A stretch of DNA of 63,893 bases, filler included, from Candidatus Desantisbacteria bacterium CG1_02_49_89 (GCA_001871075.1; 3 parts of 3 records of this genome joined end to end with filler, not necessarily neighbours in it); one strand, 5' to 3'. Positions 2,576 through 24,128 are shown, counted from the first letter of the whole stretch. Numbers and translations are program-made. The notes: generated by a model from the letters alone, not told the origin.

Positions 2576-2843
2576 GTTGATATCCGTGGCTGAGACTTTT
2601 AAATCTCATTCGAAGATCCCTGTGAAGAATATTTTAAAGCCTTTTAAGTTCTCTCTAAAAAATTGTAACTCAGGGCTTTAGCCCTGATATCAGACCTCCC
2701 TCCTTAAAGATTGGCAGCTTGCCCGCCAGTCAGTTTGGCGGGGGTCTTCGAAAAGGTCTGAGTTACAAATTCTCAGTGAACTCAGTGGCAAAAGAAGTGG
2801 ATTGGTTTTAAAAAATGCAGGATTCCTGCAAAGGGGAGGTAGA

Positions 2844-3883: not shown

Positions 3884-4816
3884 ATGAAAGTCCTGGTGAC
3901 AGGCGGGGCGGGTTTTATCGGAAGCCATATCGCGGAGGAGCTGGCAAAGCGCGGCTTTGACGTGATAGTGCTGGATAATTTCGATACCGGGAACAGGGAA
4001 AACACAGCGCGCCTGCCCGGCAGAGTTGAAGTTATTGAGGGGGATGTAAGGGATCTTGCGGCAGTAAAAAAGGCGGCCCGCGGGGCCGGATGTGTTTTCC
4101 ACTTCGCGGCGATCGCTTCTGTCCAGCGCTCGATAACCGACCCTGTTGAAACCAACGGGGTGAACATAACCGGGACCCTCAACGTTCTTTTGGCTTCAAG
4201 GGATGAAGGCATAAAGCGCGTTGTGTTCGCTTCTTCGTGCGCGGTTTACGGAGACCCGGGGGAAGGCAAAAAAAAGGAAGATCTGGCCCCGGATCCGATG
4301 TCGCCTTACGCGGTTTCCAAACTGGCAGGCGAATATTACTGCAAAATTTTCCATTCGGTTTTCGGCCTGGAAACGGTCATATTGCGGTATTTCAACGTTT
4401 TTGGGCCCAGGCAAAGCCCTTTCTCGGATTATGCCGCCGCAATACCGAAGTTCATCTCGCTCATGCTTGAGGGCAGGCAGCCCGTGATATTCGGCGACGG
4501 AAAGCAGTCGCGGGATTTCGTGTTTATCAGGAACGTCGTGCAGGCAAACCTGCTGGCAATGAGCGCCCAGGGCGCGTTCGGGCGGGCGTATAATATAGGA
4601 TGCGGGATGAGCGTGGACATGAACAGGCTGGTTGAAAAGCTTAACGCGGTCATGGGCAAGGACCTTCGGCCTGTTTACACCGACCCCCGCCCGGGGGATA
4701 TAAGGCAGTCGCTTGCTGATATTTCAGACGCTGAAAAACTGCTGGGATACAGCCCGGAGATAAGCCTTGAAGAAGGATTAAAGGAAACGGTTGAATACTT
4801 CCTTAAAAAAAAGTAA
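3884..4816 (+). CDS. NAD-dependent nucleotide-sugar epimerase/dehydratase (extended SDR)
   Basis: VTGGAGFIGSH, YAVSK (YxxxK), LRYFNVFGPRQ, GDGKQSRDF. Confidence 0.93.
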   Translation: MKVLVTGGAGFIGSHIAEELAKRGFDVIVLDNFDTGNRENTARLPGRVEVIEGDVRDLAAVKKAARGAGCVFHFAAIASVQRSITDPVETNGVNITGTLNVLLASRDEGIKRVVFASSCAVYGDPGEGKKKEDLAPDPMSPYAVSKLAGEYYCKIFHSVFGLETVILRYFNVFGPRQSPFSDYAAAIPKFISLMLEGRQPVIFGDGKQSRDFVFIRNVVQANLLAMSAQGAFGRAYNIGCGMSVDMNRLVEKLNAVMGKDLRPVYTDPRPGDIRQSLADISDAEKLLGYSPEISLEEGLKETVEYFLKKK

Positions 4817-4903
4817 ACGACCCTAAAGGGTCTACTCCTTAAATAAAGGGGAGGTGTTCATTTAAAATAAAGATTGTTCAAAGCAAAAGATTGTTCAATT
4901 TAG

Positions 4904-4931
4904 TTGACTTTTCGTAAATAAAATATATAAT
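4904..4931 (+). promoter_or_regulatory. Sigma70-like promoter upstream of tRNA-Lys
   Basis: TTGACT-16 bp-TATAAT, preceded by two direct copies of AAAGATTGTTCAA (4869-4898). Confidence 0.55.
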
Positions 4932-4984
4932 ATGATAATGCTAACTAAAATTATGAATTATGGATCAACAGCAAGGATCTTGTT

Positions 4985-5037
4985 GTAACTCAGACCTTTA
5001 GGTCTGATGAATCATCAGGGCTGAAGCCCTGAGTTAC
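4985..5037. repeat. REP-like doublet GTAACTCAG-hairpin. Family also at 2665-2766, 18901, 24460-24541, 29449, 30404, 50614, 60715.
   Basis: GTAACTCAGACCTTTAGGTCTGA ... TCAGGGCTGAAGCCCTGAGTTAC inverted pair. Confidence 0.8.
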
Positions 5038-5235
5038 AGTTTATAACTTGTCACTTGATACTTGTTACTTGTCACTGTAGTTTATGGTGGGCCGTAAGAA
5101 CCTGTCCCGCCTTATCGGCGGGCCAGAACCTTGTTACTTGGCAACTAAACGTCGGGGGCGTGGCGTAATATGCTCAGCTTGAACTTTTGACCTTTGCATT
5201 TTGACTTTTGACCTTTGACTTGTTTTTAATGATAT

Positions 5236-5308
5236 GGGCCAGTAGCTCAGTTGGTAGAGCACCGCCCTTTTAAGGCGGGTGTCGAGCGTTCGAGCCGCTC
5301 CTGGCTCA
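5236..5308 (+). tRNA. tRNA-Lys (anticodon TTT), CCA not encoded
   Basis: Acceptor GGGCCAG/CTGGCTC, D arm GCTC/GAGC, anticodon stem CCGCC/GGCGG with loop CTTTTAA, T arm GAGCG-TTCGAGC-CGCTC. Confidence 0.95.
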
Positions 5309-5468
5309 TTTCTTCTTCACTTTAACACTTCAACGGCACTTGCTCCGAAGGAGTTCCTTCGGGACATCCCATCCGATCCCTTACCCCTTAATTTTAAAGC
5401 CAGCATCCACTAACCTGATCTCTTACTACAGACACGGATCCTTTTATTTATATAAGAGACTTAAATAT

Positions 5469-8400
5469 ATGAAAAAATCTCTCTCTTTCTTTATTCTTGG
5501 GCTTTTACTTGTCACTTGTGACTTGTTACTTGTTACTGTAGTTCGCGCCGGCGGCCCCGGTTTTGCTTCCTTATATAAGGACCCAAAATAACAGAGGATA
5601 CTTCAACACCGACGGAACAGACTACGCCACTGTCACCGTCATCGTGATCTCGGAAACAACCACTAAGATATCCGGCCAATACGTAACCATTTATACGAAC
5701 CGCGGAGCCGCGTTCGATACGGGCTCAGGCGCTTCAAAGGTTACGAATGCCAACGGCGCGGCTACTTTTACGATCAGGTCCACGACCCCGGGAGAGGCCA
5801 ATTTTTACGCGGTGTGCATGGGAGAGACCCTGTACCCGAACCTGCTCAACAACGCGTCCATGGAGAGCGCGGGGACAGGCAACACCTACGCTCTTTACTG
5901 GACAGGCGTTGGCGCTGCTATACCGCCGTATAACTATACGCGGACAAGCACTGTAAGGTATGAAGGCATATACTCGGTCAGGCACGAGTCAGGCCGCGCA
6001 GGCAATCCTTACCAGGACGTTTCTATCATAGAGCGCAGTTCTTTATATGAACTTTCCGCGTACCAGTACGGACCGCTCAGGCAGCCCTACCTGGACCTTA
6101 ATAACACAGGTTACGACAAGAACATATACGCAGCCACCCCGAATACCTGGTGCTATTCCTCGGATATCTGGTCCAGCACAACAAATACAACGGCGAGGGT
6201 AAGGTTCCAGGTTGACGGATCGCCCGCGAACCTTGACTGGTGGGATAATATCCGGTTCCAGAGGATCCCGACAGTCACATTCATGAGGATAGTTGAGTTT
6301 CCCATAGCGATAGAAGCAGAGCATGACGATGTCTGGCATCTGGGCGGTGTTTCCATAGTAAACCCATGGGTAAACGGGTCTATCAGCGGAGTATTCTGGA
6401 GATTTAATAATAACAACGACAGGGTCCTTCTTTACGGCAGGGTGCCCCAGGTATGGAATGAATTTGAAACACAGATATTCAAGGTTTCATTCAGGGCTTT
6501 CGGTTTAAACGGGGGGGCCTGGCCTATCGCCGGCGTCGCGGTGGACGACGCGAACACAAAGAACATAAGCGTTGAGACTTCCGCGGTGCAGGTTTTTTAT
6601 TCCGGGACCTTTACCCTGGGCGTCGGCCTGCACAAGGTCGCGATCGTGCTCACAAACGGCGCCGCTTCAGACCTGTTCATTGACTGGTTCGGCATAGGGC
6701 CTGTGAAGAGCGCGGCGGATTCTCCGGCGCTTTCCAGGGAGGAGATCAAGGTCAGGCAGGACGATACCTACGTGATACCGATGTGGGAGTTCGACGAAGC
6801 CGGGAACACGGAAGGATGGGAGGGCTATAACGGCGCGAGCGTCACGGGAGTTTCAGGCGGAAGCCTGAACCTTACCACCACGAACACAGAGCCGGTGCTT
6901 TTATCCCCGCGCGTATTTGTGGACCAGAACCAGAACAAATACGTTTCCTTCAAGATGAAGGTTGACAGGGGAACAAGCGGAAAACTGCAGTGGGTCAGGC
7001 AGGATATCCCGGGGCCTTTGGGAGAAATGAGCTTTGACATAGAGGCGGACGGCCAGTTCCACGTTTACAACATTGACCTGAGTTCCGGTTCCAATTACGC
7101 GTTCTGGGGAAATACCTGGAACTACTATTTGACAGGGTTCATGTTGTTGCCGACTAACGCGTCCGGAGCAAGCGTCCAGATCGACTGGATAAGGATTTCG
7201 AACGTAAAGCAGGGCGAGGCAGAGATCAATATCACGTATTTCGGGATCGAGGAAGGCGGCAGGGCGGGAGAAAGCATACCCCTGTGGCTGAAAGTTGAGA
7301 ACGCGGGCGGGGAAGCGGCTGAATACGTTGCCGCGACTTTGAGCCTGCCCCCGGGCCTGGTGATAGCGAACGGCGGAAATACCTTCGGGGTCATAACCCT
7401 TTACAATAACACGACATTCGCCTGCACTGTCATAAGCTCAACCGCGATGTCCAGCACAGCGTACGTGACCGTGAGCGGGCGGAACTTCCTTTCCGAGACC
7501 GCTTCCTGTTCGATAACCATAACCGCAAAGCTGGCGTCAGACACCGACTACCCTCCTGTGCCCGAAACCGTGACCACCCCTTACGATGTCGGGGTTTATT
7601 ACTTCCCCGGATGGAAGCAGGGAGAGCACTGGGGCTGGGACGTGATAAGGCCCGAGTACCCGCAGAGAAAGCCGCTCCTGGGATGGTATAACGAGGGAGA
7701 ACCGCCCATCGCTGACTGGCATATTAAGTGGATGGCTGAGCACGGGGTGAAGTTCATTATCTACGACTGGTACATGTGGACTGACTATAATGTCGGCCTT
7801 GAACACGCGCTCAACGCCTACCTTGATTCCAGATACAGGTCCTATATCAAGTTTTGCCTGCTCTGGGCGAACCATTTTGCCGGCCACACGCGCGACCTGA
7901 TACTTTACACCACGCAGTACTGGATCGACCACTATTTCAACCAGCCCGAGCATTACACGATAGACAACAAGCCTGTGGTAATAATTTTCTCTCCTTTTCA
8001 GTTCAGCGAAGACCTTGGAAGCTACGCGGCTGTCGCAAGCGTGTTCGCCGAGATGAGGCAGATGTGCGTTGACGCGGGGTACGCGGGCCTTTATCTGATC
8101 GCCGGCAACGGCACCAGCCAGTCAGAGATCCAGGCGATCCAGACCATGGGTTATGACGCGTGCACCGGTTACAATTATGCCGGGTCAGGCATGAGCCCCG
8201 AGGAAGCAGTTCTGAACAGGTCCCCGTATTACAAGTGCATAAACGGGCACCGCGCGATCTGGGAGGCGATACAGGGATACGGATACCTTCCGTACATTGC
8301 GCTGACAGAGCCCGGGTGGGATAACGGCCCATGGGCCGGTTCTGCCGCTCTCGTGCGGACCAACAGGAACAAGGCTGATTACAAGTCCATGCTCATAAAT

Positions 8401-11400
8401 TCCAAAGCGTTCGCTGACAGCTACCCTATCCTCGGCAAAAAGATAGTCATATCCGAGTGCTGGAACGAGTTCGGGGAGGGCGCGGTTGTCGAGCCCTGCG
8501 TGGAATTCGGCTTCGACATGCTGGACGCGATCAGGGAAGTTTTTGTGGATACCAACCCGCACACGGACCTGGTTCCGGCTGACATAGGCCAGTCCGTGCC
8601 CCAGTGGTTCTTCAGCTACGGGGACGGCCCGTGGTACTCGGCGATGAGAAGGGCAGCGGTCCGGCTTTCCAGCGCCGCGGCAGGTGATCTGCCTGTTACG
8701 GATACGATAACTTTCACGACTTCGCGGTCTGACACGGTAACAAGACTGACGCTTTTTTACCCGAAAGGCTGCGTGCTTACAGGCGCAAGCCTTGTTTCAG
8801 TGAAGATCGACGCTATTACCGCGGGCACGATCTCGGTAAGCACTGAGACCATAACGTTCATCGCTTCAGCGCCTGATTCGGTAAGCGCCGGGACCGGGTG
8901 CACTATTGTTATTTCCGGACTGCAGAACCCCATTAAAACAGGAGGGTATGAAGTTGTGGTTACCACTTATGATTCGAAGGCCCAGCCGGTTGACGGCTTC
9001 ACTCCCGCGACATTCACGATAACAGCCGCTCCGTTCTCTCCAAGCTCTTCCTGGCTTTTCCTTTCAAGGTCGGTTTCGGCTGACAGGACGGCTAAATGCA
9101 CGATAACCGTTGTAGTGACAGACCAGTTCAGGAACCCGATCCCCGGTAAAACCGTCCTGATAACTTCAAGCAGGGGAGCGGGTATTGATACCATAACCCA
9201 GCCTTTGTCCGTAACCGACGCAAGCGGCATGTGCACGGGTTATCTGGTTTCTTCACAGCCCGGGAAGGACACAGTAACAGCGTCCGTTAACGGGGAGATG
9301 GGCACAATACAGAACGTTGTTTTCAGGGACATATCTTTCGGCATCTGGGATTTTGAGGACACGAAAAATTATACGGCCTATGATTATTCCCAGAGCCACA
9401 ACAACGGCATTATATACGGCAACACCGCGGAAACCATCGGTTACCGGGGCGCCGCGAAATATTTTGACGGGAACGCGGACTATATAACAGTTCCTGACAA
9501 CGATTCCCTGGACCCGTTCGAGGAAATAACGGTTGAGCTGTGGTATATGACCGGCGTTACCCAGACCGACAAGTGGATGTTTAACAAGGTGCCAGGCTCA
9601 GGCAATATGGGATACAGGCTCGGGATCTCAAGCGCAAACGTCGGATGGCAGGTTGCGGGCGCATCCGCCTGGAGCTATCACCTTTACGATCCGTCTCCGG
9701 CTCCGCTGAACGCCTGGACGCATGTTGCAGCGACCTATGAAGGCAATACAATGCTGCTCTACGTGAACGGCGTAAAGGTCAGTTCGCTTTCAAGGCCTGA
9801 ATACGGGATATATCCGTCCAGCATTCCTTTATACCTGGGAACATGGGCGCCGGGTAACGCATTCTACACAGGATGCCTTGACGAAATAAGGTTCTACAAC
9901 AAGGCGCTGACAGCCGACGAGATACTGCTCAGCTATCAGGGAAAGGCAAAACCGGTCATTTTCACCGGCGTTGAATCAAAGATAAAGATAACATCCCCGC
10001 CCAGGTCGGTGAAGCAGGGCAATATTTCGGATGTAATACTGTTCGAGGTCCAGGACAACATAGGGCAGAAGGTGAGTTATTTTACCAATACCGTCACACT
10101 CTCCGTTTCCTCGTCCACCGGAAGGTTCTCCCAGGACGGTTCAAGCTGGAGTTCCTCGAATACTTCGGTCATCTACGCGAATGAAGGTTCCGGGTATTTC
10201 TACTTCCGGGACACAAGCGCGGGCAGCCCCGCTGTCACGGTCTCAAGGTCCGGGCTTTCGCCCGACACGCAGGTTGAAAGCGTCAGCGCCGCATCAGTTT
10301 CAGAGACCCTGTCCTTCCTCAGGCTTAACGATGCAAAGATACCTGCCAACGGCACAACGGTCAGCACTATAACGATCTATGTAAAGGACATAGCGGGGTC
10401 CGCGTTATACGGAAGGCAGGTCACGGTTTACACAAGCCGCGGCCCTGTTATTGACACGGTAACACAGCCGTCCCTGACCAATGCGTCAGGCATATGCTAT
10501 GCGGCGATAAGATCGTCAACCGCAGGCCAGGATACGATAACCGCGAGATGCGAAGGCGTGACTATTACTGAAAATATCCTTAACAACCCGTCTTTTGAGG
10601 ACGGGACATCGGCACCAAGCAGCTGGGCGCTGAACATTTTATCAGGCGCATCGTGGGGATGGGACACAACAACGGTTTACAGCGGCGCGAGGAGCGTGCG
10701 CATTTCCGAGACTGCTACAGCCCAGGACAATTACGCGGAGGCAAACTGGGCCGGAACAACATACAACAACAGGTGGGACATAGACCCCGGATCTTCGTTC
10801 ACCGTGTCGCAATACCTGAGAACAGACCTGGCCTCGGATTACGCAGGCATGCGGATCGTATGGTGGAACGGGGGGACATACGCGGGCGAGGTGAACGCCG
10901 ACACCAGGACAGGGGTAAATCCCTGGACCCTGCTGCAAAAAACAGTTACCGCGCCCTCGAACGCGAACGGGCTGATGTTCCGCTGCGACAACAAAGGGGT
11001 GGGCACTGCGTGGTTTGACGCGGTCCGGGTTAAAAGGACCCCGACCATGGAATTTCTTGCCGCCGAGAAACTCGCAATAATCACTCCGGTCCGCGCGACC
11101 ATCGCCAATTCGGCTTCCGAGTCGATCTGCATCCAGGCGCAGTGGGGCACAGGGACAAAAGCGGGTTCATACAGCGGGTTCTGCGCTCTTTCTTCCTCGT
11201 CAGGCCTGGGGAAATTCAGCGTTTCAAAATACGCGCCCGCGAACAGCTGGACTTCCGCGATCACGGTAAAGATAATAAGCGGAGAGACCTTTGTGTACTA
11301 CAGGGACACGCTTAAAGGTTCGCCCGCGATATACGTTACGAGCACGGAGCTTTCAGGCACAAACCAGCCCGGCCATTCCGTAGGCGTCGGTCCGTTCTCG

Positions 11401-14400
11401 GAGACAAGGTCTTACGTGGTGATGCCGAGAACAGGGTACGCGAACGGCACCCAGTATACGGTGAGCGTTTACGTGACCGATTACTGGAGGAACCCGCGGT
11501 CCGGGGAGAGCGTGGCCATTACAACGTCCCGAAAGGGAACAGCCGAGAGCGGGTATGACACTGTGCAGCAGCCCGCGACAAAGACGTTCGATAACGGCAA
11601 ATGCACGGGAAAAATATGGTCCACACTGGTCGGCATAGACACGGTAACCGCGTATGTATCGGGGCAGCCCTTAAAAAGGATCACGAATACGATCTTCTCC
11701 GACCTGGGCGGGGGCGCGTGGAACTTTGACGAGGGCACAGGTTCTTCCGCGGCTGACGTTACCGGGAACGCGAACAACGGAACTTTCTACAATTCCCTGT
11801 GGGAGGACGGGGTTATCGGCAAGGCAGCGCGCACGGTTGACGGTTCAAGATATGTTTCCGTGCCTGACGACAGCACGCTTGATTTTTCAAAGGCCCTGAC
11901 AATGGAGGTGTGGGCCAAGATATACGACGGGAACGGCGGGCAGACCATAATGAGGAAAGAGCTCGCGTATTATTTGCGCAGGGACGAGATCGCGGAAGGC
12001 CCTGACTTCACCGCTTTTGTGTATACGACCGGGTGGGAACCAAGGGTGCCCAGCAACTTCATGCCGGATTCAGGCACTAACGCGTCATGGTACCACGTAA
12101 CTGCTACCTATGATAACGACACTCCGGCAAACCAGCTTAAGATATACGTCAACGGCGTGCTGCAGAACCAGATATCCAAGTCGGGAAACGTGAACATCAC
12201 CTCCAATGAGCTCTTTATGGGGATGAGCGGCTGCATGGACGAGGCGCGCGTCTACGGCGCGGCGCTGACCCCGGAGGAGATCTACGCGAGCTACACGGGG
12301 GCTTCCAAACCTATAACATTCTCGCTTCCCGCAAAACTGACGATCACCACTCCGCAGAGGGAGGTGAAACAGAACAATCCCTCGGATTACATCACGGTTG
12401 AGGCGCAGGACGACACCGGGAACATTGTAGCCGTATTCAATGAAAGCATCACGCTTGCCTGTTCTTCCACGACAGGAAGGTTCTCGCTTGACAGGGTCAG
12501 CTGGTCCGCTTCAAACAACACATTTATATACCTCGTGAACGGCACAAGGGATTTTTATTTCAAGGACACTGTTATAAACAGCCCGGTCATCACGGTTTCG
12601 CGTTCCGGCCTGCAATTCGATACTCAGGTGGTGATCGTTACCCAGTCATCCGTGTCCGGAACGCTCTCCTATATCCGCGTGGATGTCAACAACGTGAAGA
12701 TCCCAAGGGACGGCGTAACCCTTTGTACCTTTACCATTTCCGTCAGGGACATGGACGGCGGGACCCCGCTCTCTGGCAAACAGGTTACGGTCTACACCGC
12801 GCGCGGCCTTGGCATAGACACGGTCACGCAGCCGCAGCTCACTGATCTTAACGGGTTATGCACTGCCGCCGTCGTTTCCACGACCGCCGGCGGCGATACA
12901 ATATTCGCGGTGTGCGACGGGGTAACGATCACTGAGAACATAATCAACAATATGTCTTTTGAACAGGGCACGGGGGCATATCCTGACGGGTGGGGCGTTA
13001 ACGCGAATACCTGGACATGGGTCACCGATGTGGTTTACAGCGGCGCGAAAGCAATGAGAAATTTTTCCGACGCTGTAACCGACCAGTTTGTTGAGGCGCA
13101 GTGGACAGGGACTCCTTATTTTAACCGATGGCCCGTGCATCCGAGCACTGTTTTTGTTGCCAATCAGTGGACAAGATCCGATCTTTCAAGCGGGGACGCG
13201 CGTATAAGGATAATATGGTTTAACGGCGGGTCTGTGATAGGAGAGGTAGCCGCGGCTCAGATATGGGGCACCCAGCCCTGGACACTGCTTTCCGGGACCC
13301 TGACTTCCCCTGCAAATGCGGACGGGCTTATGTACCGCGCTCATAACGCCGGCCTGGGGACAGCGTGGTTTGACTGCATACGCCTGCAAAGATACCCGAT
13401 GGTGGAATTCACGGCTGCGGGAAAGCTTGCCATAATAACTCAGCCCAGGCAGGTTAATGCGGGCAGCGTTTCCGAATCAATAGTGATACAGGCGCAGTAT
13501 CTGGGTGGCACAAAAGACTCGTCTTACAACGGGACCTGCACCCTTGTGTCTTCGTCAGGCATGGGATTTTTCAGTACCAGCTCAACAGGATGGGGAGAAA
13601 CATCCACGATCATACTGGACATTGTGAACGGCGAAACGTATTTCTATTACAGGGACACCAAAGCCGGTTCACCGGTCATCACTGTCACAAGTCCCGACCT
13701 TAACTCCTGCACACAGGCGCAGTCCGTGTACCCGGGCCAGTTCTCCGAGACAGCTTCGTTTATAATGCTGCCCAGGGAAGCGATCGCCGTGGACACATCC
13801 GTGTGCACGGTCACCATCTACGTTATGGACTGTTACAGGAACACGATCAGCGGACAGCAGATAATAATAACCACAAGCAGGATGGGCACACCGCAGGGGA
13901 TCTATGACACAATAACGCAGCCGTCCTCAGTATCCGATACATTTGGGACCTGCACCGGAACGCTTGTCTCGACCCTTTCCGGTTACGACACCGTGACCGC
14001 TTATATACCGGGCTACAGTTCAAGGCGCGTTAAAAATAATATATTCAGGGACATAGCCACGTGGGTTACGAATTTCGACGAGGGGTCGGGGAGCTCCGCG
14101 AACAGCATTTCGCCGTACGGCGGCACAGCTTCCGTTGCGGGCGGCGCGCAGTGGACCCCTGACTGTAAATTCGGTTCGTCTATCTATTTTAACGGTTCTT
14201 CCGCTTACGCGCAGTCAGCTGATCAGGACATATACGACACCACGCCCATGTCCTTTGAAATGTGGATAAAGACCGACGTAGTGCAGGGCGACAAGCAGCT
14301 CATAAACCGCATTACGAGCGGAGATCAAGGGTGGAGGACCACTGTTTCGGGCCAGAATGTCAATTTTCAGATGCCTGTGACCAGCTGGTCGCATTCGCTC

Positions 14401-17400
14401 GGAAGCTCCATAACTTTCAATTACGGTGAATGGTCCCACGTGTGCGGCACATACGACGGTGCGAATATGTGCCTTTACATAAACGGCAGCCCTGCCGGGC
14501 AGCTCGCCAGGACAGGCGGGTGCACGAATTCGGGACAGCAGCTGAACATTGCCTGCTACAGCCCGGGCGGAGCCGCGTTCAACGGCTGGATTGACGAGAT
14601 CAGGATCTACCGCGATGCGCTGACCGCTGTTGAGGCGCAGCAGAGCTGGATGGGCGAGGCAAAACCAATTTATTTTGTCAGCTATGCCTCAAAACTGGAA
14701 TTCATAACTCCTCCCAGGACGACCAGCGCGTGCGTAAAGTCAGAGTCGATAGCCGTGGAGGCGCAGGACGGTTCCGGCAATAAAACTAATTTTTCCGAGA
14801 TGATAGACATAGCGTCTTCTTCTTCATCCGGAAAGTTCTCTCCTGACGGGGTCAGCTGGAGCAGTTCGAATAACACCTCGATAATGATGGCGGACGGCTC
14901 AATGTTTTTCTACTACATTGACACGACCGCAGGCAACCCTGTAATTACCGTTTCGCGCGTTGAACTTGCTTCTGACACGCAGGTTGAGACGATCACGCTG
15001 TCTCCGGCTGTCGCTGAAACGAACTCCTACCTGCGAACGAACACCGCCACCATCCCCGCGAACGGCGCCGCGCCCTGCTCTGTGAACATAGTGATCAAGG
15101 ACATTTACGGCAACGGGCTGTTCGGCAAGCAGGCCACGGTCTATACGTCGAGGGGATCTTCGTTTGACACGATAACCCAGCCGTCCCTGACGGATATTAA
15201 CGGCTTATGCACAGCGCTTATAGTTTCCTGCACACAGGGCAGCGATACGATCACAGCGTTGTGCGACGGAGTTACGATCACCGAAAACATAGCGAACAAC
15301 CCGTCTATGGAGAACGGATCAGGAGATCCTTCTGACTGGTACTACAATACCGCTTCAGGAGTTTTCTCCTGGGTGGCGGACGACGCTGCTTCAGGGATAA
15401 GGTCCATAAGGCATTACTGCCCCACCAATGCGGATAATTTCGCTTATATAAACTGGCCGGGAGCCCCGATATGGGGCAGGTACCCGGTAACCCCCAATAC
15501 TCCTTACATCTTCAGCCAGTATTCGAAAATAAGTTCTGCAAGCGATACCATGGTCATCAGGCTTATCTGGTGGAACAATTCAAATTATATCACCGAGGGT
15601 TATTACGCTAGCCTCGGGAACGGACCAGCCGGATGGACAAAGATATCCGGCACAACTAACGTTCCAGCCGGCGCGAACATGGTTGAATACAGGGCAATGC
15701 ACAACGGCACTGAAACTGCCTGGTTTGACTGTGTGCGCATCCAGAGGGTTCCCACAATTGATTTCTACGGGGCCACACAGATCGCTTTCGCCACGCCGGC
15801 CAGGGCTTTTTCAGCTGGCAGCGTGTCAGATTCCATCTGCATCCAGGCGCAGTTCCCTGACGGAACAAAAGACTTAAGCTACAACGGCGCCTGTTCCCTT
15901 GTTTCGACTTCCGGACTCGGAACTATTTCGGATACGAACGCGGGCGGCGGCACATGGTATTCCGGAGCTGTCACGCTGAACCTGAAGAACGGAGAAACCG
16001 TTGTTTTTTACAGGGACATAAAAGCAGGTTCGCCGATCCTGGCCCTTTCAGCTGCAGGGCTTACAGGCAATACCCAGGCGCAGTCTGTTTCTGCGCTTGG
16101 TTTTTCCGAGACAGTCTCTTACCTTGTCATAAAACAGAGGCTGATACCTGCGGATAATTCATCTGCCTGCACAATTACGGTTACGGTTACCGATTACTAC
16201 CGCAACCCGCTTTCAGGCCAGGCAGTGATAATTACGACAAGCAGGAAGGGCACAGGGCTGGACGCTTATGACTTCATAACCCAGCCCGGCATTACCGATC
16301 CAAGCGGCGTGTGCACAGGCGCAGTGGTTTCCAGTTACGGCGGCCTGGATACGATCACAGCGTATATTGAGGGGAATTCCGTAAAACGCGTGGAAAATAC
16401 CGTGCTGGCGGACGGCCTTATAGGGATGTGGAACTTTGACGATGGATCAGGAGATGTTGCTTACGACCTTTCGATCAACAATAACACCGGCACGATAACC
16501 AGCCCTTCCTGGACAAACGGGTTGCTGGGCCCCTGCCTTTCGGTTAACGGCACTACCGGATATGTAAGCGTGGAGAATAACGCGACGCTGAACCCCGGAG
16601 CCGCGATCTCAGTGGAAGCGTGGGTAAAAATGAACGCGAATGACAACTATGCCGAAATCGTGCGTAAAGAACCCTGCTATTTTATGCGCAAGACCAGCAT
16701 AGGTGAAGGCAACAATTTCAATTTCTTTATCTGCACCGGCGGCGGCTGGGAACCCAGGGCTGCTTCAAGCCTTATTCCGGATTCAGGGCCCAATGCTCCC
16801 TGGTACCATATTGTCGGGACTTATGACAGCAGTATTGGCGGGAATAACAACAAATTATATATTGACGGAGCCGTTGACGGTTCATCCGCGAAAACAGGTC
16901 CTATTGATTCAAGCGCGAATCCTCTGAGGATCGGAGGCCTGGGAGCGATCTGGAACGGTGTGATGGACGAAGTGAGGATGTATAGCCGCGCGCTTCCCCT
17001 GGACGAGATCAAGGCGGGTTATGAGCGCAAGCCCAAGCCCGTAACGTTTACCGGTATGAATTTAAAGATCCTGACGCCGCAAAGGACCGCGGCGCAGGGC
17101 GCAGCCACTGATTCAATAACGGTAGAGGTCCAGGGTCTGGGCGGAGGCAGGGATGTAAGCTTCTATGATACGGTCATCCTCTCAAGCAGTTCGCCGGGCG
17201 GCAGCTTCTCAATAGACAATATTGTATGGGCTGATACCACGAACATATACCTTTCATCCGGCTACGGGGTATTCTACTACAAAGACACCAATATAGGCAA
17301 TCCCGTGATAACCGCTTATCGCGAATCGCTTATCGCAGATACTCAAGGCGAAACAATAACAGCAGGGGGAGCGGGATACTTCAGTTTCATCAGCCCAGAA

Positions 17401-18369
17401 TTCAGAATACGGGCTGCTGATACATCACCGCTCGTAACAGCGGTCGCTTATGATTCAGGCGGGAACACTGACGTTTCGTTCAGCAGCACGGTAAGTTTAT
17501 TCACAAGCTCCAGTTCCGGGTCCTTCTCAGTGTCAACAACTCCATGGGCAGATACAAGCACGATCACGTTCCTTAATGGCTTCGGCTATTTCTACTACCG
17601 CGACAACGCTGTCGGTAATCCTGTGCTATCAGCTATGAGCTATGAGCTATCAGCTGACACACAGGTAGAAACAATAACTATACGGTACCTGCGATTCTCA
17701 AACACAACACCGTTCACCATAACAAGCATAAGTACCGCTCCGGTGTTCTTAAAAGCAGTAGATGGTTCTGGGAATACAGCGGTTCTCTTTAATGATACGG
17801 TCCAACTGCTTACCACATCAACAAAAGGTTATTTCTCCGTGTCAGGCACTACCTGGGTAAACACAAGCATCGTGTACCTCGTATCCGGCGGAAAGACCGT
17901 ATACTACAAAGACAAGATAGGCGGTAACCCTGTCATAACCGTGACCAGGACAGATTCCTGGACATGGACAGACACTCAACAGGAGACGGTTACAAAGCCA
18001 ACCGTTCTAACTTCTAAGGTTCAAATGAACGTTCGTTCAGGAGAAACAGGTTCAATGCCTATGAAATTCTGGGTTTCTGACACTGTTGAATACACTGTTT
18101 ACATTTCAAACACAGGCACAGAAACCGCGACAAACAACCTTATCGTTGACACAAGGTCTTTTGATACCAGCGTCAATAATCCTGTTGACTACATTTATAT
18201 GGACACTTCAGGTTTTGCTGACACCTGGGCATACACAACAGACCTTGTTTCCTGGACAACAGGCAATCCTGCTTCAGGCACTTCCAATGTCAAAGGCCTG
18301 CGCTGGAGAATAGATAGTCTTGGCATAAATCAAACCAAAGCCATAAGGTTCAGAGTAAGAGTGAAATAA
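5469..18369 (+). CDS. Giant (~4,300 aa) secreted modular protein: GH99-like/WbsX-type catalytic domain, 4 LamG domains, 4 CBM4/9-like domains, many Ig/invasin-like repeats, DUF11-like C-terminus. Apparent +1 frameshift at ~5571.
   Basis: ORF 5563-18369. GH99-like motifs VGVYYFPGW, PLLGWY, FCLLWANH, PGWDN, WNEFGEG (~7580-8545). LamG motifs W.FDEG...W.HV..TYD...LYVNG...DE.R.Y..AL. NPSFE..WFD.V modules. The signal peptide MKKSLSFFILGLL.. starts at 5469 in another frame. Confidence 0.8.
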
Positions 18370-18415
18370 ATCCCCCTTCTTCCCCCTTTATCAAAGGGGG
18401 AGTGAGGGGGATTTA

Positions 18416-18600
18416 GGAGTAGGGGCTTTAGCCCCGTTATTTAAACGACCCTAAAGGGTCTACTCCTGAAAAAGCAGTTTAAGTTCTCCGCTAAAAGTTT
18501 TAACACCGTAATCTCTTTTAATAATTTACCCTTCGACGTGTTCTACGAAGCTTTAGCGTAGTAGAAAGCTCGAAGAGCATAGTAGGGTCACTGTAATCGT
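18416..18600 (+). repeat. Composite leader repeat, copy 1 (with an extra 30-bp insert)
   Basis: Direct near-copy of 20746-20900. Confidence 0.85.
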
Positions 18601-18614
18601 TTACAGGAGAAAAC

Positions 18615-18842
18615 ATGGAATGTAAATATTATAATAAGGAACACAGGGCGATAACTACCATAGGAAGGCTGGACAGCAGCACCGAGACCAGCGGTATGTG
18701 CGCGCTTAAGCAGAAAAACGAGAAAAAGCTCGCGGAGGTTTTCGGGGCGCTGGCAAAGAAAGGTCTTGAGAAGAATTTTGAAAATGAGGAATGCCCTGTG
18801 GCTGAAGACGGCAGGTGGGACGAATGCCCGTTCTTTAAATAA
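18615..18842 (+). CDS. Small hypothetical protein with four cysteines
   Basis: AGGAGA RBS, 75-aa ORF with plausible codon usage. Confidence 0.6.
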   Translation: MECKYYNKEHRAITTIGRLDSSTETSGMCALKQKNEKKLAEVFGALAKKGLEKNFENEECPVAEDGRWDECPFFK

Positions 18843-19017
18843 AAAGCGTGTCAACGTATCAGCGTGTCAACGTATCAGCGCAGTAACAAGGATTTTTATT
18901 GTAACTCAGGGCTTCAGCCCTGATAAGCAGTTTAAATCCCGCTCGAAGATCCCTGTTGAAAATTATTTATCCATGGTAATCCGTGGCTAAAATATTTTAC
19001 AAAAAGGAGCATATGTT

Positions 19018-19872
19018 ATGGCAGATAAATTTCCCAGAACCAAGGTAGGCGGGTTGCCGCTTTCAAGGATGATAATCGGAACAAACTGGTTCCTTGGATA
19101 CAGCCATACTACAAGAGCCAAGGATGAATACATAACGGAAAACGTGATGGACAGGAAGAAGATCGCGGATATCATCGAGGTTTTCCTCCGCTCCGGGGTT
19201 GACGCGCTGATGGGCCCCCTTAACAACCCGATCATGACAGACGCGATGAAAGACGCGGAGGACCGCACCGGCGCCGGGATAATCCGTATCTCAACTCCCT
19301 CTATTCCCGTCAACCCGAGGACTGTTATAGACGGACTCGATATCGGGGCGGTCGAAAAGATCCTTGACGCGGAAGCAAGGCTGGGCGTGCATATCGTAAT
19401 GCCTCATACCACATCGACAGATATGCTCGTTGACAACTGCACGGGCGAGCTGCGCCAGGTGGATAAGTTCTGCAGGCTAGCAAGGGAAAGGAAGATGATC
19501 CCGGGACTGAGCACGCATTTGCCGCAGTCCATTACTTTTGCCGATAAAACCGGATTGGACATCGAAACATATATTTCTATATTCAATGCGATGGGGTTCC
19601 TGATGCAGGTTGAGGTTGACTGGACGGCGAGCATTATAAGGAACGCGAAAAAACCCGTAATGACAATAAAACCTATGGCAGCCGGCCAGATACGGCCGCT
19701 GCAGGCTTTTACTTTTGTATGGAATGCGATAAGGGACTGCGATATGGTGACAGTGGGCACGATGTCCCCGAAGGAAGCCGCGGAATGCATAGAACTGTCA
19801 CTGAGCATCCTTGAGCACAGGACCGCGGATATAAAACTGCAGGAAACCCGCTCCAAATCCATATTGAAGTAA
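19018..19872 (+). CDS. Aldo/keto-reductase-like conserved hypothetical protein
   Basis: LSRMIIGTN start, GLSTH, KPVMTIKPMAAG. AAGGAG RBS. Confidence 0.65.
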   Translation: MADKFPRTKVGGLPLSRMIIGTNWFLGYSHTTRAKDEYITENVMDRKKIADIIEVFLRSGVDALMGPLNNPIMTDAMKDAEDRTGAGIIRISTPSIPVNPRTVIDGLDIGAVEKILDAEARLGVHIVMPHTTSTDMLVDNCTGELRQVDKFCRLARERKMIPGLSTHLPQSITFADKTGLDIETYISIFNAMGFLMQVEVDWTASIIRNAKKPVMTIKPMAAGQIRPLQAFTFVWNAIRDCDMVTVGTMSPKEAAECIELSLSILEHRTADIKLQETRSKSILK

Positions 19873-19957
19873 TCGTTCTTCGTGCTTCGTGCATCGTTCA
19901 TCGCAAAAGATATGTAGCCGCAGGCTTAAGCCTGCGTTGACAATCAGAGGAGGGGAA

Positions 19958-20632
19958 ATGAGAAAATATGTTATTTCAGTAACGCTTATTTTTATTTTTA
20001 TTTTAGTATTCGTCTACAATCAGAAGAAAGCAGGTTCAGTATCCGCAGATACTGTCCCTCAGGTCACAAAGCTTCCGCAGCCTGCTAAAAAAGGCGCGAT
20101 GTCGCTTGAGGAAGCGATACAGAAACGCCGTTCAATGAGGGCGTATAAGAACCAGGCGCTTACGAAAGAGCAGGTGTCTCAGATCCTGTGGGCAGCCCAG
20201 GGCATAACCGACCCGGACGGCAAAAAGCGCGCGGCCCCTTCGGCGATGGCAATGTATCCCCTGGAGATCTACGCGGTCTGCCCTGAAGCGGCATACCATT
20301 ACATTCCGAAAGATCACGCCGTTGAAAAAGTCGGCGACGGGGATCTGAGGAAAAGCCTGGGCGGGCAAAAAACCTCATCAGAAGCCGCGATGGTTATCGT
20401 GATAACCGCCGTACCCACGCTTTTTTCATCCAGGGTTGATGAGAACAATAAAATGAAGTTCATATACCTTGAAGCCGGGCATTGCGCCCAGAACATACTT
20501 TTACAGGCAGTCGCGCTAGGGCTGGCCGGGGTCCCTATGGCAGGTTATTCGGAAGAAAGCATTTCAAAGGCGTTGTCCCTGCCTGCGGACCGCAAACCGA
20601 TCTATATCATATCCGTCGGTTATCCGCAGTAA
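19958..20632 (+). CDS. SagB/ThcOx-family nitroreductase with N-terminal signal/anchor
   Basis: RRSMR, ILWAAQG, RAAPSA.A.YPLEIY, EAGHCAQNILLQA. GGAGG RBS before ATG 19958. Confidence 0.88.
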   Translation: MRKYVISVTLIFIFILVFVYNQKKAGSVSADTVPQVTKLPQPAKKGAMSLEEAIQKRRSMRAYKNQALTKEQVSQILWAAQGITDPDGKKRAAPSAMAMYPLEIYAVCPEAAYHYIPKDHAVEKVGDGDLRKSLGGQKTSSEAAMVIVITAVPTLFSSRVDENNKMKFIYLEAGHCAQNILLQAVALGLAGVPMAGYSEESISKALSLPADRKPIYIISVGYPQ

Positions 20633-20745
20633 GCTAACGCGTAGGGGCGACCTTGGTCGCCCTTTGTAGGGGCTCAATTTACCTGTCCGCCAATTTTATT
20701 AGGAGGGAGGCTTGCGATTAGTTGATAAGTGTATAAGGGGATTTT

Positions 20746-20900
20746 GGAGTAGGGCCTTTAGGCCCATTATTTTAAAGACCCTAAAGGGTCTACTCCTGAA
20801 AAAACAGTTTAAGTTCTCTGCTAAAAGTTTTTACACCGTAATCTCTTTTAATAATTTACCCTTCGAAGCTCGAAGAGCGTAGTAGGGTCACCGTAATCAT
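20746..20900 (+). repeat. Composite leader repeat, copy 2
   Basis: Direct near-copy of 18416-18600. Confidence 0.85.
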
Positions 20901-20916
20901 TTTTGGAGGAGAAATT

Positions 20917-21282
20917 ATGGAAAATAAAAATGAAGTTAAGGGATTGTGGGGCGGGGATCTGAGGATACCGACTTTCATCCAGATCAATTTTAAAAAAATG
21001 AGCGACCCGGCAGAAGGTTTCATGCTTATTGGAAGTATCCTGGACCTGGGCATAGTCGGAGTTAAGCTGGAAACGGAAGTGCAGATAGTGCAGGGAGAAA
21101 ACCTGCTTTTGAGGATACCGCTGTCTTTTCTTCCCCGGGACTACAGTTTTACCGGGACAGTGCGGTGGGTTAATAAGACCGCGACGGAATTTGTCGCTGG
21201 CGTGGAGCTGCTGATGAACGATAAAAAGATCCATGAAATAATGAAAAAGAATATTAAGAAGATGATGAAGTCAATGCTTTAG
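20917..21282 (+). CDS. PilZ-like beta-barrel protein (atypical)
   Basis: ILDLGIVGVKL and GTVRWV...AGVE resemble the PilZ core. The RxxxR motif is absent. Confidence 0.5.
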   Translation: MENKNEVKGLWGGDLRIPTFIQINFKKMSDPAEGFMLIGSILDLGIVGVKLETEVQIVQGENLLLRIPLSFLPRDYSFTGTVRWVNKTATEFVAGVELLMNDKKIHEIMKKNIKKMMKSML

Positions 21283-21418
21283 GCGCAGCAAAATATGATT
21301 ACGCCGATTTCGTAAAGATGATTACACAGATTGATTTCATAATTAATTATTGTGTCTCCGGGATTCCTGGTAGGATGATAGATCCCGTGTGCCATTCTAA
21401 CTATTTAGAGGAGAAAAA

Positions 21419-21883
21419 ATGAGATACAAGCTCTTTTTTATCTCGATGATCGGGTTGATATTATCCGGGTGCGCTTCAGAAACTCTCGTTATAAGATTTG
21501 AGCAAAGTTCTGATACGATAAAATGCAACGCGGACGCCATAAAAGAGGGGATTGTCATAAATAACGAGGACATCCCGATCATTCAGTGCAGGATCGATAC
21601 AGCGGCACTGGAAAAAATAAAAAGCACTGAAGGTAAGGATATGAAGAACATTGTTTTGATCTGCCATAAAGGGACATATTATCTTGCGGCGGAAGGATTT
21701 AAGAATGTCTGGACGATAAAACCCCGTAAAGACGGTTCCACGGCAGACTGCGGTTTCATCCCGCTTCCGAACGCGGTAAAAAGACCGGAGTTTGAAAATA
21801 CAGATACGGGTGTTTTGATCATTTCAAAATCAAAGGACAGATATTTCATAGGTCCAAAAGGAAAGATCGAGGAGTGGAGATGA
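21419..21883 (+). CDS. Hypothetical lipoprotein
   Basis: Lipobox ILSG-C after a hydrophobic leader. Confidence 0.65.
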   Translation: MRYKLFFISMIGLILSGCASETLVIRFEQSSDTIKCNADAIKEGIVINNEDIPIIQCRIDTAALEKIKSTEGKDMKNIVLICHKGTYYLAAEGFKNVWTIKPRKDGSTADCGFIPLPNAVKRPEFENTDTGVLIISKSKDRYFIGPKGKIEEWR

Positions 21884-22917
21884 AAAAGAAAATCATTTTT
21901 TTTACTGTTTTAACTTTCTTTTTAATAGTTTCCGTTTCGGGCGCGCAGCGCGCGGGAACAATGCGGGAGGAGCGCGATTCCATACTTAACAGGCTTTCTG
22001 CCATTGAGGCAACCCTTAACGGCTCAGGGACAATGGTCAACACGGACACGCGCCTGGTCTTTGCGAAAGTAGACGGCCTACTCGGGAGTTTCAGGGTCAA
22101 ATGGAGCGGGAACCCGGCCGGAAAGGTCACTTACAGCGTTTTAAAGAACAGAAGGGATAAAATATTCAGGATCTACAACCAGGCTTCGAAAAAGGTGGGA
22201 GAGATCCTAAGCCTTTGCGGCAGGATCAGGGACCTTGAGGAAACAATAACGTACCTGACCCAGCGGATGCAGGAATCCGACTCCGAAATCCAAAATTTAA
22301 GGAACGAGCTGTATGCGAAGGAGAAAGAGGCCGGAAATTTAAAGAAAGAAAATCAGCGCCTGCAGGCCCGGCTTGAAAATTACAAAAAGAAGCTCGATAA
22401 TGTCTATGAACAGGCCCGGGACCTGCTGGGATATATATTTAACGAGATCTCGGCCACAAATACTTCGGATAAGAATATAATAAACCGGTTTACGGCAGGC
22501 ATAGAATCGATCAAAAATACTTTTGTGGGTTACCACAGGATATTTAACGACCTGAGCGAAGAAGAAATAAATACCAAAGAAAAAAGGGAAAACTGGTTGT
22601 CGCGCTACCGGATCGAATCTGAAGCGTACGGCAAGATCCTGAAGCTTTGGTCGGACAGCAGGGATAGGATCGTCGGGTTATTCCAGAAAAACGAAGATAT
22701 AGCGAATATCAGCCGGATAGATGAGGCCATCGGCAGGATTTCAAATTTATTGCCAAAGCTGGAGGCCAGGAAAGAGATATTGATCAAAAGGCAAAAGCAG
22801 GAAAAATTAACAGCTTTAATCATACTGGCCGTTTTGGTCTTGGCCGCGGCAGCGGCATGCCTGGTCATCAGAAATCTTTCAAGAAAAAGGACCGGTTCAC
22901 GAAAAATGCCCGGATAG
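21880..22917 (+). CDS. Hypothetical coiled-coil protein with signal peptide and C-terminal membrane anchor
   Basis: ATGA overlap with the upstream gene, heptad-rich middle, hydrophobic C-terminal helix followed by basic residues. Confidence 0.65.
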   Translation: MKKKIIFFTVLTFFLIVSVSGAQRAGTMREERDSILNRLSAIEATLNGSGTMVNTDTRLVFAKVDGLLGSFRVKWSGNPAGKVTYSVLKNRRDKIFRIYNQASKKVGEILSLCGRIRDLEETITYLTQRMQESDSEIQNLRNELYAKEKEAGNLKKENQRLQARLENYKKKLDNVYEQARDLLGYIFNEISATNTSDKNIINRFTAGIESIKNTFVGYHRIFNDLSEEEINTKEKRENWLSRYRIESEAYGKILKLWSDSRDRIVGLFQKNEDIANISRIDEAIGRISNLLPKLEARKEILIKRQKQEKLTALIILAVLVLAAAAACLVIRNLSRKRTGSRKMPG

Positions 22918-23161
22918 CCGCTCTTTTCAACGGTATCCATTACATCACGAGATAAAAAAAAGAGGGTCAGACCTTGAATAAAGGAATTATTCTATTTACT
23001 CCCCGCTAACTGCTGGAGTCTTCGTCTCCGGGTGTGAACGAGTGTTTTTTCTCCCCAAGGGGACTTCGTCTGCGCCTCATCTTGACCCCATGCTGTCCCG
23101 ATAGAACATCGGGACAAGACGCCGGGGTCTGCGTCAGAAAGTACCAAAGTGGGGTTTTTCC

Positions 23162-23210
23162 TTGACAAATATAAAAAAATAAGTATAATAGTAGTTGCAA
23201 GTGTGACTAC
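23162..23210 (+). promoter_or_regulatory. Promoter and probable autorepression operator of the TA operon
   Basis: TTGACA-16 bp-TATAAT (23162-23189) followed by the imperfect palindrome GTAGT..ACTAC (23191-23210). Confidence 0.65.
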
Positions 23211-23250
23211 AATATAAGGAGTTCCAGGAATAAACCTGGAGGAGCAAAAA

Positions 23251-23541
23251 ATGAGCGTTGCCACGGCAATATTAAAAGCTGACCATATCGGTGTCAGGGA
23301 TCTAAAGGAGCATCTGTCTACAAAAATTCTGGGGAAAACCCTGGTTATCACGGAAAGGGGCGTTCCGGTAAGCGTTAATTTGCCATATGAAGATGTGCTG
23401 GAATTGACGGATTTACTTGATGAACTTGCAGATCCGGAAACCCTTGCAGCCGTGGCCGAAGGCAGGAAAGCAATAAACAAAGGAACCAAGGGTAGGGCAG
23501 TTTCTTTTCTTTTTGAAAGAATACAGGCAAAACGCAAATGA
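23251..23541 (+). CDS. Type II antitoxin (Phd/YefM-like)
   Basis: IGVRDLKEHLS..LVITERGVP, acidic C-terminal half, ATGA overlap with the toxin. Confidence 0.8.
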   Translation: MSVATAILKADHIGVRDLKEHLSTKILGKTLVITERGVPVSVNLPYEDVLELTDLLDELADPETLAAVAEGRKAINKGTKGRAVSFLFERIQAKRK

Positions 23542-23843
23542 CGTATGGAGTTAGATTTCCGAGTCATTCGACTGAAAATAAGTTTGAAAAAATCCTTTCC
23601 AGAATTTCTAAAAAAAACATTCAAGACGAAATTATGGATGCCGTAAAGAGTTTGGCGGGCAATCCTTTTCCTTATGGTGAAAAGCCGTTCAAGAAACTTG
23701 ATCCTCCCGTAATTTTTTACCAATTTACGGCTCAATACCGGATAAGGGTCAGAGATTACAGAATACTTTATGATGTGGACAAAGACAGAAAAATCGTGTG
23801 GGTTTTGGCTTTAAGAATACGCTCTGAAAAAACTTATAAATAA
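23538..23843 (+). CDS. relE: Type II toxin, RelE/ParE family
   Basis: Basic 101-aa protein with YRIRVRDYRILYDVD...R.EKTY. Confidence 0.88.
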   Translation: MTYGVRFPSHSTENKFEKILSRISKKNIQDEIMDAVKSLAGNPFPYGEKPFKKLDPPVIFYQFTAQYRIRVRDYRILYDVDKDRKIVWVLALRIRSEKTYK

Positions 23844-23946
23844 CCATATATTTTACAGGAAGCACGCCTGTTTCGCTACTGCTGATCTCAGATACGGCAG
23901 TAGTTTTTATTTTTAAAGCTTTCAGCTTGTTTTAATCCCTTATTTC

Positions 23947-23975
23947 TTGACTTTTTTCAATATATAAGGTATAAT
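23947..23975 (+). promoter_or_regulatory. Sigma70-like promoter upstream of tRNA-Glu
   Basis: TTGACT-17 bp-TATAAT. Confidence 0.6.
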
Positions 23976-24128
23976 ATATTATACTTTATACTTTATATAT
24001 TAAATGGTTCCGTAGTTCCCGCCTCATCGGCGGGTCGCTGTAGTGGCGACTGTGGTTCAAGGAATTTATTTTAGAATTTTATTTAACTTGCTACTTGTCA
24101 CTTGTTACTTGTCACTGTATTTGAGGAT

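Follow-up and report, generated by a model that had tools for sequence, protein, structure and literature searches.

Small dispersed repeats (SDRs) of cyanobacteria appear, by their behaviour, to be the closest known parallel of the element described here. The SDR1–8 of Nostocaceae, reportedly described by Elhai et al. in 2008, are said to be hairpin-forming units of 21–27 nt that nest in their own copies and also occur within heptamer tandem repeats and mini-transposons. We know of no enzyme for SDRs, and to our knowledge they are the only comparable case described, left without a mechanism since 2008. The available portions of three later papers place SDR5, 21 nt long, precisely between nucleotides 3 and 4 of HIP1, report SDRs only from Nostocaceae, and still describe SDR function as unknown in 2026 (PMC5861425, PMC4390886, PMC13756078).

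REP and REPIN elements are the second point of comparison. RAYT enzymes work on single-stranded hairpin DNA and make no target duplication, according to the accessible parts of PMC3116915, PMC3333891 and PMC3733652. The E. coli enzyme TnpA-REP is described in part of PMC3333891 as binding REP, cleaving single-stranded DNA of iREP plus linker, performing strand transfer and needing little more than CT. The same text portion describes the 'peel and paste' of IS200/IS605 elements, which is strand- and orientation-specific, proceeds 3' of a short single-stranded motif with recognised hairpins and makes no duplication. Some GTAG-3 and GTAG-14 REPs have self-complementary stretches as long as 27 bp in their loops, and REPs also lie inside palindromes, according to excerpts of Di Nocera et al. 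2013 (PMC3733652). Some insertion sequences, among them IS1397, use REPs as targets, and PMC3116915 cites work on them (Clement 1999; Tobes and Pareja 2006).

The genome studied here carries a 28–30-nt unit, B, in the loops of REP hairpins, together with units C (26–27 nt) and D (25–26 nt). Like SDRs, which are reportedly of roughly similar size, these are dispersed hairpin units with precise insertion; unlike SDRs, they have host phyla that are not Nostocaceae, and the likeness is one of behaviour. The feature is real, and the sequence-only reading of B as a parasite of REPs, targeted by hairpin structure plus a few bases, is supported. We class B as an SDR-like mini-element that here parasitises REPs in candidate phyla.

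Genomes and searches

The window is the whole stretch of DNA analysed, 63,893 bases long, and consists of contigs C21 (1–31488), C22 (31589–58336) and C32 (58437–63893). N runs at 31489–31588 and 58337–58436 join the contigs, and no feature is readable across the joints. The contigs belong to a Desantisbacteria-type groundwater MAG, G000 (2.48 Mb, 150 contigs, 48.9% G+C, 93.5% complete), in which only 85 HIP1 sites occur. Among the genomes compared, its sole same-order relative is the Candidatus Desantisbacteria MAG G001; the other 'relatives' are related at domain level only. A cyanobacterial origin, which the heptamer repeats could suggest, was rejected on genome size and completeness, the few HIP1 sites and the Desantisbacteria relative. 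Comparisons also included an Omnitrophota MAG (G032) and an Auribacterota MAG (G033).

Window sequence was found in 24 public runs, all groundwater or aquifer metagenomes in contig form. Four of the 24 were followed over window 4750–24700, where contigs break at repeats and no B-less form is among them, a result that speaks neither for nor against polymorphism. At 18380–18930 and 24017–24060, the public contigs of all four runs pile up, end or jump; depth there reaches ten times that of the flanks, with many loose ends, marking other high-copy repeats in the window.

B was counted by scanning for its 3' end and taking the best-pairing 8-nt arm at the standard geometry, which reduced 87 candidate tails to 59 strict copies. 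The strict census is a lower bound because the filter loses copies with offset geometry or degenerate tails, such as those in CTCCCCCG..GGGGGAG hosts, C111:20335 and C143:9242.

Host REPs and RAYT genes

In its basic form the host is an inverted doublet of 48 bp, made up of GTAAC, a hairpin with an 8-bp stem and a 2-nt loop, TA, a second hairpin, and GTTAC. A simple genome search found 31 GTAAC..GTTAC doublets, 14 of them exactly 48 bp. On the strand that reads B forward, the host hairpin is followed by GTTAC, CCTAC or GCTAC, the complements of GTAAC, GTAGG and GTAGC tags. The host hairpins thus have, as REPs do, a GTAG-like tag at one end of a short palindrome, and they share with REPs and REPINs a high copy number and inverted doublets. 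G000 contains 211 empty stem-CT-RA-AG-stem hairpins with stems of 7 or more; loops such as RG or RC gave 1–9. Empty GTTAY-type REPs number 129, against 0 for the reversed-pattern control. The window has an empty REP doublet at 4985–5037 (plus strand), in which neither hairpin loop is occupied.

Ten Y1_Tnp matches were found in G000. Two are 160-aa ORFs on contig C23 that score 94.7 and 99.7 bits against NCBIfam NF047646 (REP-associated tyrosine transposase, cut-off 80), and both genes are bracketed by GTTAC REP arrays, the association with RAYT genes that is expected of REPs. At this locus (L088, C23:1500–4700) the two genes are 86% identical and lie either side of a malic-enzyme gene, and each has on both sides head-to-tail GTTAC REPs in tandem arrays of up to seven. 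Six further Y1_Tnp-family ORFs of 181–332 aa lie on C13, C100, C38, C114, C80 and C111; no B or C units occur within 1.5 kb of them, and REPs of the families examined are almost absent there, with one tag near the C80 ORF and one near the C114 ORF. The 332-aa form has counterparts 39–43% identical in G001, G032 and G033. Across the four genomes, the Y1 proteins of about 330 aa are 38–50% identical, with no sign of co-transfer with B.

The GTAAC hairpins that host B are true RAYT-associated REP/REPIN elements. Like the REPs and REPINs described in the accessible parts of PMC3116915, PMC3333891 and PMC3733652, they are tagged 18-nt hairpins, often in inverted doublets, with more than 200 copies and flanking RAYT genes. 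B itself is unlike a REP: it has no GTAG-type tag, it does not flank a RAYT gene by itself (near the ten Y1 genes it is present only within the GTTAC REPs around one C23 gene), and it sits inside REP loops. B is a passenger or parasite of REPs, not itself a REP.

Structure and target of B

B consists of an imperfect hairpin, CCCTCC-N9-GGCGGG, and a 3' tail, TCTTCGA. The strict set comprises 41 simple copies (31 of 28 nt, six of 29 nt and four of 30 nt) and 18 invaded ones (53–105 nt). All 59 lie 3' of CT at the tip of a REP hairpin, and their orientation with respect to the REP tag is fixed. The 5' arm ends in CT in 59/59 copies, and the 3' arm starts with AG, after a 2-nt loop (AA 44, GA 15), in 58/59. 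Pairing between the arms is 8/8 in 44 copies, 7/8 in nine, 6/8 in four and 5/8 in two. Arms with at least 7/8 pairs occur in 53 of the 59 copies versus 132 of 200,000 random positions (0.066%). Had B lain mostly outside REP loops, the sequence-only reading would have been refuted; instead, every strict copy (59/59) occupies a single junction within REP-type arms. CT, AG and the RA loop are kept across variable stems, in agreement with the proposal that targeting depends on hairpin structure plus a few bases.

Comparison of empty with filled hairpins left zero shift ambiguity at both junctions, so no target duplication is made. The ends of B (CCCTCC.. and ..TCTTCGA) are not inverted repeats. 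Classification as a MITE was rejected, as B has neither terminal inverted repeats nor a target-site duplication. Oriented, duplication-free insertion 3' of a short motif, seen in all 59 copies, is shared with IS200/IS605-derived elements. Those elements have subterminal hairpins at both ends and need one at each, in the available part of PMC3333891, whereas B has only one. Around the sole IS200-like gene of G000, no IS200-type end resembling B was found.

In the window, B occupies three REPs. The first is a REPIN-like doublet at 2665–2766 (plus strand) consisting of GTAAC, hairpin 1 (TCAGGGCT-TT-AGCCCTGA), TA, hairpin 2 and GTTAC, with B in hairpin 2 and C in B. The 5' arm of the invaded hairpin, TCAGACCT (2690–2697, plus), forms 8/8 pairs with its partner AGGTCTGA at 2754–2761. 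Between the arms lie the 5' part of B, CCCTCCTTAAAGATTGGC (2698–2715, plus), a 26-nt C element on the minus strand (2716–2741, CCGCC-N9-GGCGG-GCAAGCT) inserted between GGC and GGG of B, the 3' part of B, GGGTCTTCGA (2742–2751, plus), and AA; the 3' arm and GTTAC follow. As single-stranded DNA, 2665–2766 is predicted to fold into nested hairpins (-20.2 kcal/mol, z = -3.8). The second, at 24460–24541 (plus), comprises GTAAC, an empty hairpin, a B-bearing hairpin and GTTAC, with a simple 28-nt B at 24499–24526 between arms GCAAACCT and AGGTTTGC (predicted DNA fold, z = -3.5). The third is a single TCAGGGCT/AGCCCTGA REP with a GTTAT tag at 60715–60766 (plus), with a 29-nt B at 60723–60751. The window contains two copies of the B 15-mer AAGATTGGCGGGTCT, versus 0.12 expected.

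These positions (2665–2766, 24499 and 60723), and that of the empty doublet at 4985–5037, are those of the sequence-only reading, which had also placed B at the same position in three REPs with different stems (TCAGACCT, GCAAACCT and TCAGGGCT); the rule holds genome-wide. Its assignment of both B and an 'A' element to the REP at 60715 stands for B only. 'A', a nested palindrome (CCGCCCC .. GGGGCGAGACCTCGCCCC .. GGGGCGG) at 60767–60811 (plus), is separate and adjoins the REP from outside, directly 3' of the GTTAT tag. The 'A' family has 32 places in the genome, with an outer hairpin CCGCCC(C)..(G)GGGCGG around the palindrome GGCGAGACCTCGCC plus one or two variable hairpins. It is another nested-palindrome family and often lies directly 3' of a GTTAT- or CCTAT-tagged REP.

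A further family uses the same stem words. The conserved tandem hairpin pair GGAGTGTT-CCCGCC..GGCGGG-TCCGCC..GGCGGA-AACCTGTG recurs at least five times (C30:12055–12096, C75:16649, C131:3880–3914, C131:6141–6175 and C5:3803–3844). Reverse-complemented B includes a strong Shine-Dalgarno-like word, TAAGGAGGG, with no start codon at a suitable distance after it because the REP arm follows. B is antisense to flanking long ORFs in 30 of 36 co-directional contexts, its reverse complement being on the sense strand. Empty REPs show the same bias (106/145), which makes it a property of REPs and not of B.

The fixed orientation of B, and its close parallel to SDRs in size, nesting and heptamer hosts, would suit spread through an RNA intermediate by reverse transcription of a small hairpin RNA, a route reportedly suggested for cyanobacterial SDRs. 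The middle of the B stem argues otherwise: it has a conserved T-C mismatch (G-A on the other strand) and no G-U wobble. No matching Rfam RNA family was found; the window gave two tRNAs only at the gathering threshold, and eleven foreign B loci gave nothing below E = 0.1. Reverse transcriptase (RVT_1) is present in three of the four genomes, with one partial match at a contig end in G000, and is absent from G033 (0/6 candidates). We consider an RNA intermediate quite improbable.

Units nested in B and in other repeats

The C element has the consensus CCGCC-N9/10-GGCGG-GCA[AG]GC(T), is 26–27 nt long and was found in 67 copies. Fifteen of these lie in B, where they share one insertion site, CCC^GCC of reverse-complemented B, and one orientation; their hosts vary in stem and in B variant. 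The flanks are ..GA[CT]CC before and TGCC.. after, and the boundaries are unambiguous against intact B. The inner 26-nt insert that had been noticed in the 2698 copy of B (2716–2741) proved to be the reverse complement of C, at the site common to all 15. About 30 of the 67 copies lie within 7–8-nt tandem arrays, for example of the GTGTCAAC type, where the array resumes exactly (e.g., GTGTC^AAC) with no duplication. Some of the remaining copies are in other hairpin loops. Tandem arrays of 7–8-nt words (TTATGAA/G, GTGTCAAC, GTGCGTC, ATCACCGTA) are extremely common genome-wide, resemble cyanobacterial STRR repeats and serve as hosts of C. A C-type unit in the window (24390–24414, plus; CCTCC-N9-GGCGGGCAGGC) lies inside a recurrent ACAGGGAAC..TTAAGAGAACT repeat, with ten same-flank copies.

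The D element, TCCNCC-N9-GGCGGACAAG/A, is 25–26 nt long and has 29 copies. Fifteen occupy the site ATT^GGCGGG in B, C or a CCCCGCCACGAATATT hairpin, and twelve, of the ACAGG subtype, are in loops of other GTAG-type REPs. In the window, a D-type unit (24633–24656, plus; CCACC-N9-GGCGGACAAG) lies at the loop/3'-stem junction of a CCCCGCCACGAATA..GGCGGGTCGCAATGAC hairpin. The core CCNCC-N9-GGCGGR has 262 matches in G000 (control 9), 217 in G032 (control 5) and 15 in G001, and none in the Nostoc punctiforme plasmid pNPUN01 (354 kb).

B, C, D and the ACAGG type belong to one superfamily of units built from a hairpin and a tail, which is also present in other phyla; every type has a fixed target of its own. 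C enters after a C in heptamer or octamer arrays, or at CCC^GCC of reverse-complemented B; D enters at ATT^GGCGGG of B, C and other hairpins. The nesting is the product of these target rules. The description of the window locus as Russian-doll nesting is literally correct, each layer having its own fixed site. Nesting and heptamer embedding, both reportedly SDR traits, are also found in B, C and D (C in B in 15/67; D nested in 15/29).

Repeated insertion into several REP families

The hosts of B are GTTAC REPs in 26 copies, CCTAC in 24, TACTCC in five, GCTAC in three and another type in one. Occupancy is roughly 26/155 for GTTAC, 24/59 for CCTAC and 3/~25 for GCTAC, and each family has many empty members. 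The commonest B 28-mer is identical in two GCTAC and three GTTAC hosts, and another is common to one GTTAC and one CCTAC host. Copies differ by 3.70 within a host family versus 4.11 between families (permutation p = 0.13, n = 31); B sequence is unstructured by host family. A single clade of B-bearing REPs, the pattern of one ancient insertion, is not what these data give: at least four REP families are occupied independently, with identical B across families. One 12-copy composite family (REP, GTTAT and 'A' palindrome) has near-identical right halves. Its REP loop is empty in ten copies, holds B in one (window 60723) and holds a 70-nt B composite in one.

Some REPs were copied whole with their B, for example three GCAAACCT hosts in which B and its flanks are nearly the same, and the pair C110 and C138. 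Such composites would be expected if REP plus B were an ancestral functional unit, a protein-binding or RNA structure of which empty REPs are deletion derivatives, or if one insertion had been copied. Recurrent precise deletion, however, would lack flanking direct repeats to act on, and empty hairpins outnumber filled ones (129 to 26 for GTTAC, 250 to 3 in G001). Identical B in different REP families, and B-like units in other phyla without these REPs, also count against it. The host-family and empty-REP counts already largely refute an ancestral REP-plus-B unit, which we regard as very improbable indeed.

Six B copies are chimeric, with mismatched arms that derive from two different REPs, so recombination between copies also reshuffles B. 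Chimeric units were seen at window 20682–20707 (minus), C18:979, C100:8322, C100:12410, C87:9037, C17:856 and C73:11893. They combine the 5' arm and head of one REP family with the tail or 3' arm of another, which points to recombination between elements through the shared core. In the window example, the B-type head sits in a GCAAGCCT REP arm; the tail joined to it is of the ACAGG type and leads into TAAATTGAGCCCCTAC, the 3' arm of a different REP. Composite, already invaded B, including the 70-nt form, is found in several different hosts; if composite B moved as units, the insertion determinants would be at B's ends.

Exchange of this kind raises the question of whether an enzyme is needed. 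Template switching or gene conversion at stalled hairpins, with the apical CT/RAAG and the stems as microhomology, could draw on the CT-RA-AG apex common to all host families. The two-REP arms of the six copies (e.g., C18:979, C100:8322, C87:9037 and C17:856) would then be exchange within B, and the 70-nt composite in several hosts would fit as well. Yet two plus four bases are very little homology for 59 perfectly placed junctions, C and D follow different, equally precise target rules, and G001, with twice the REPs, has only three B tails. Nearly the same B-like units are moreover abundant in two other phyla, without these REPs and in other contexts. Template switching is unlikely as the explanation of B, though as a contributor to its spread between REPs it may have had a part.

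Occurrence in other genomes

B tails matching GGCGGRTCTTCGA number 42 in G000, alongside its 129 empty GTTAY REPs. G001 has 250 empty GTTAY REPs and three B tails, every one of them in a REP loop at the junction seen in G000. Neither G032 nor G033 has empty GTTAY REPs (0 each), and they carry 52 and 25 B tails, respectively. Reversed-pattern controls for REPs and B tails gave 0 in all four genomes. B and REPs are thus dissociated between genomes, which argues that B is a separate insertion module, neither a REP variant nor one ancient insertion.

In 150 other Omnitrophota genomes sampled, 0–4 B tails were found in each, and a 27-nt degenerate B pattern gave 12 loci in 185,579 species genomes. 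Desulfobacteraceae, Bacteroidales, Desulfonema and Pseudomonadota MAGs from that scan, with 1–3 B tails each, and Paraburkholderia, with two, were not counted as carriers. A plasmid blastn search with 2660–2770 gave no match. Viral contig matches (18) were set aside as chance-like, being GC-rich loops in apparent coding sequence. The patchy, high-copy, cross-phylum distribution argues for an independent, horizontally transferred element.

The G033 unit is nearly identical to the window 60723 variant and, in 15 of 20 loci fetched, abuts TAGG of a GTAG-type REP. In G032, the unit is found in the loops of other hairpins, in an intergenic repeat of about 150 nt or in an interleaved arrangement. 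At G032 loci L016, L017, L031 and L033, the order is stem 1 5', stem 2 5', stem 1 3', TCTTCGA and stem 2 3'. This arrangement resembles an H-type pseudoknot, and simple nested insertion cannot produce such an order. At L023, L024 and L028–L030, the loop of a GCGAAATTG..CAATTTCGC hairpin holds a B-like hairpin with TCTTCG(A) on both sides; the pair may be a short direct repeat, which differs from the arrangement in G000.

Proposed mechanism

B is very probably a separate, site-specific insertion module. It would be a non-autonomous mini insertion element of 28–30 nt, distinct from its host REPs, that integrates between ...CT and RA-AG... at the REP hairpin apex in one orientation and with no target duplication. 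Integration may take place on extruded single-stranded hairpins through HUH/Y1 (RAYT-type) cut-and-join activity supplied in trans. The combination of a separate mini-element, REP-apex targeting and single-strand integration of this kind is, on balance, probably the best explanation overall.

Insertion of B by a RAYT-type enzyme in particular is the leading possibility, though one that we put forward with low confidence. It is favoured because the targets of B are the binding sites of RAYTs encoded in G000, and because B is always on the iREP strand, 3' of CT. The action of E. coli TnpA-REP on iREP and linker DNA, with CT as almost its sole need, and the G033 units that abut TAGG of GTAG-type REPs point the same way. 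Several observations oppose it. No gene physically linked to B was found, the ends of B are unlike REP, and targets differ between phyla, one G032 family having TCTTCG(A) on both sides. The E. coli RAYT, moreover, cuts between C and T and not in loops, according to the accessible part of PMC3333891.

Empty/filled polymorphism at an orthologous site was not seen in the public contigs, which break at repeats, and a metagenome scan for alleles of the 24499 site gave one match, in the filled form. We therefore infer the mobility of B from paralogues only.

Relation to described systems and significance

A search of openly available main texts found no report of a REP-loop-specific element of about 28 nt, or of SDR-like elements outside cyanobacteria; B-tail 13-mers matched two unrelated papers only. 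Complex-loop REPs have the same palindrome within a palindrome as B in REP. In the available portion of PMC3733652, they are treated as family loop variants, not as insertions or as an independent element that has a distribution, a target rule and invaders of its own. IS1397-type elements have the REP hairpin as a specific target, like B. They are of kilobase size and encode a transposase, whereas B is 28 nt and encodes nothing. The 28-nt NTS hairpin of Ssn nucleases, in the portion of PMC11893778 available, is unrelated to B in sequence.

A wider and more tentative reading would make B, C and D cross-phylum 'nano-transposons' of 25–30 nt, hyperparasites of REPINs, of heptamer arrays and of each other, inserted by a single-strand DNA enzyme (HUH/RAYT-type or unknown) and spread horizontally. 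If true, they would have no terminal repeats, make no duplications and enter extruded single-stranded hairpins at the tip. Their spread would have taken place among uncultivated groundwater Desantisbacteria, Omnitrophota and Auribacterota, and the same process would also account for the SDRs of cyanobacteria and for the 'complex loops' seen in some REPs of Proteobacteria. Mobile DNA of 25–30 nt, non-coding and with neither terminal repeats nor duplications, would be about the lower size limit of a transposable unit.

As a system, G000 is cleaner than the SDRs. It has one exact target (CT^RA at the REP apex), a candidate enzyme class encoded beside the targets and dozens of empty and filled paralogous sites, together with a REP-rich, B-poor sister genome and related units in two other phyla. 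Taken together, these features open the mechanism to direct tests on oligonucleotides with purified RAYT. For annotators, 'structured repeats with compensatory stem changes' can be nested insertions, not RNA genes. REPINs, genomic parasites or domesticated elements themselves, carry parasites of their own.
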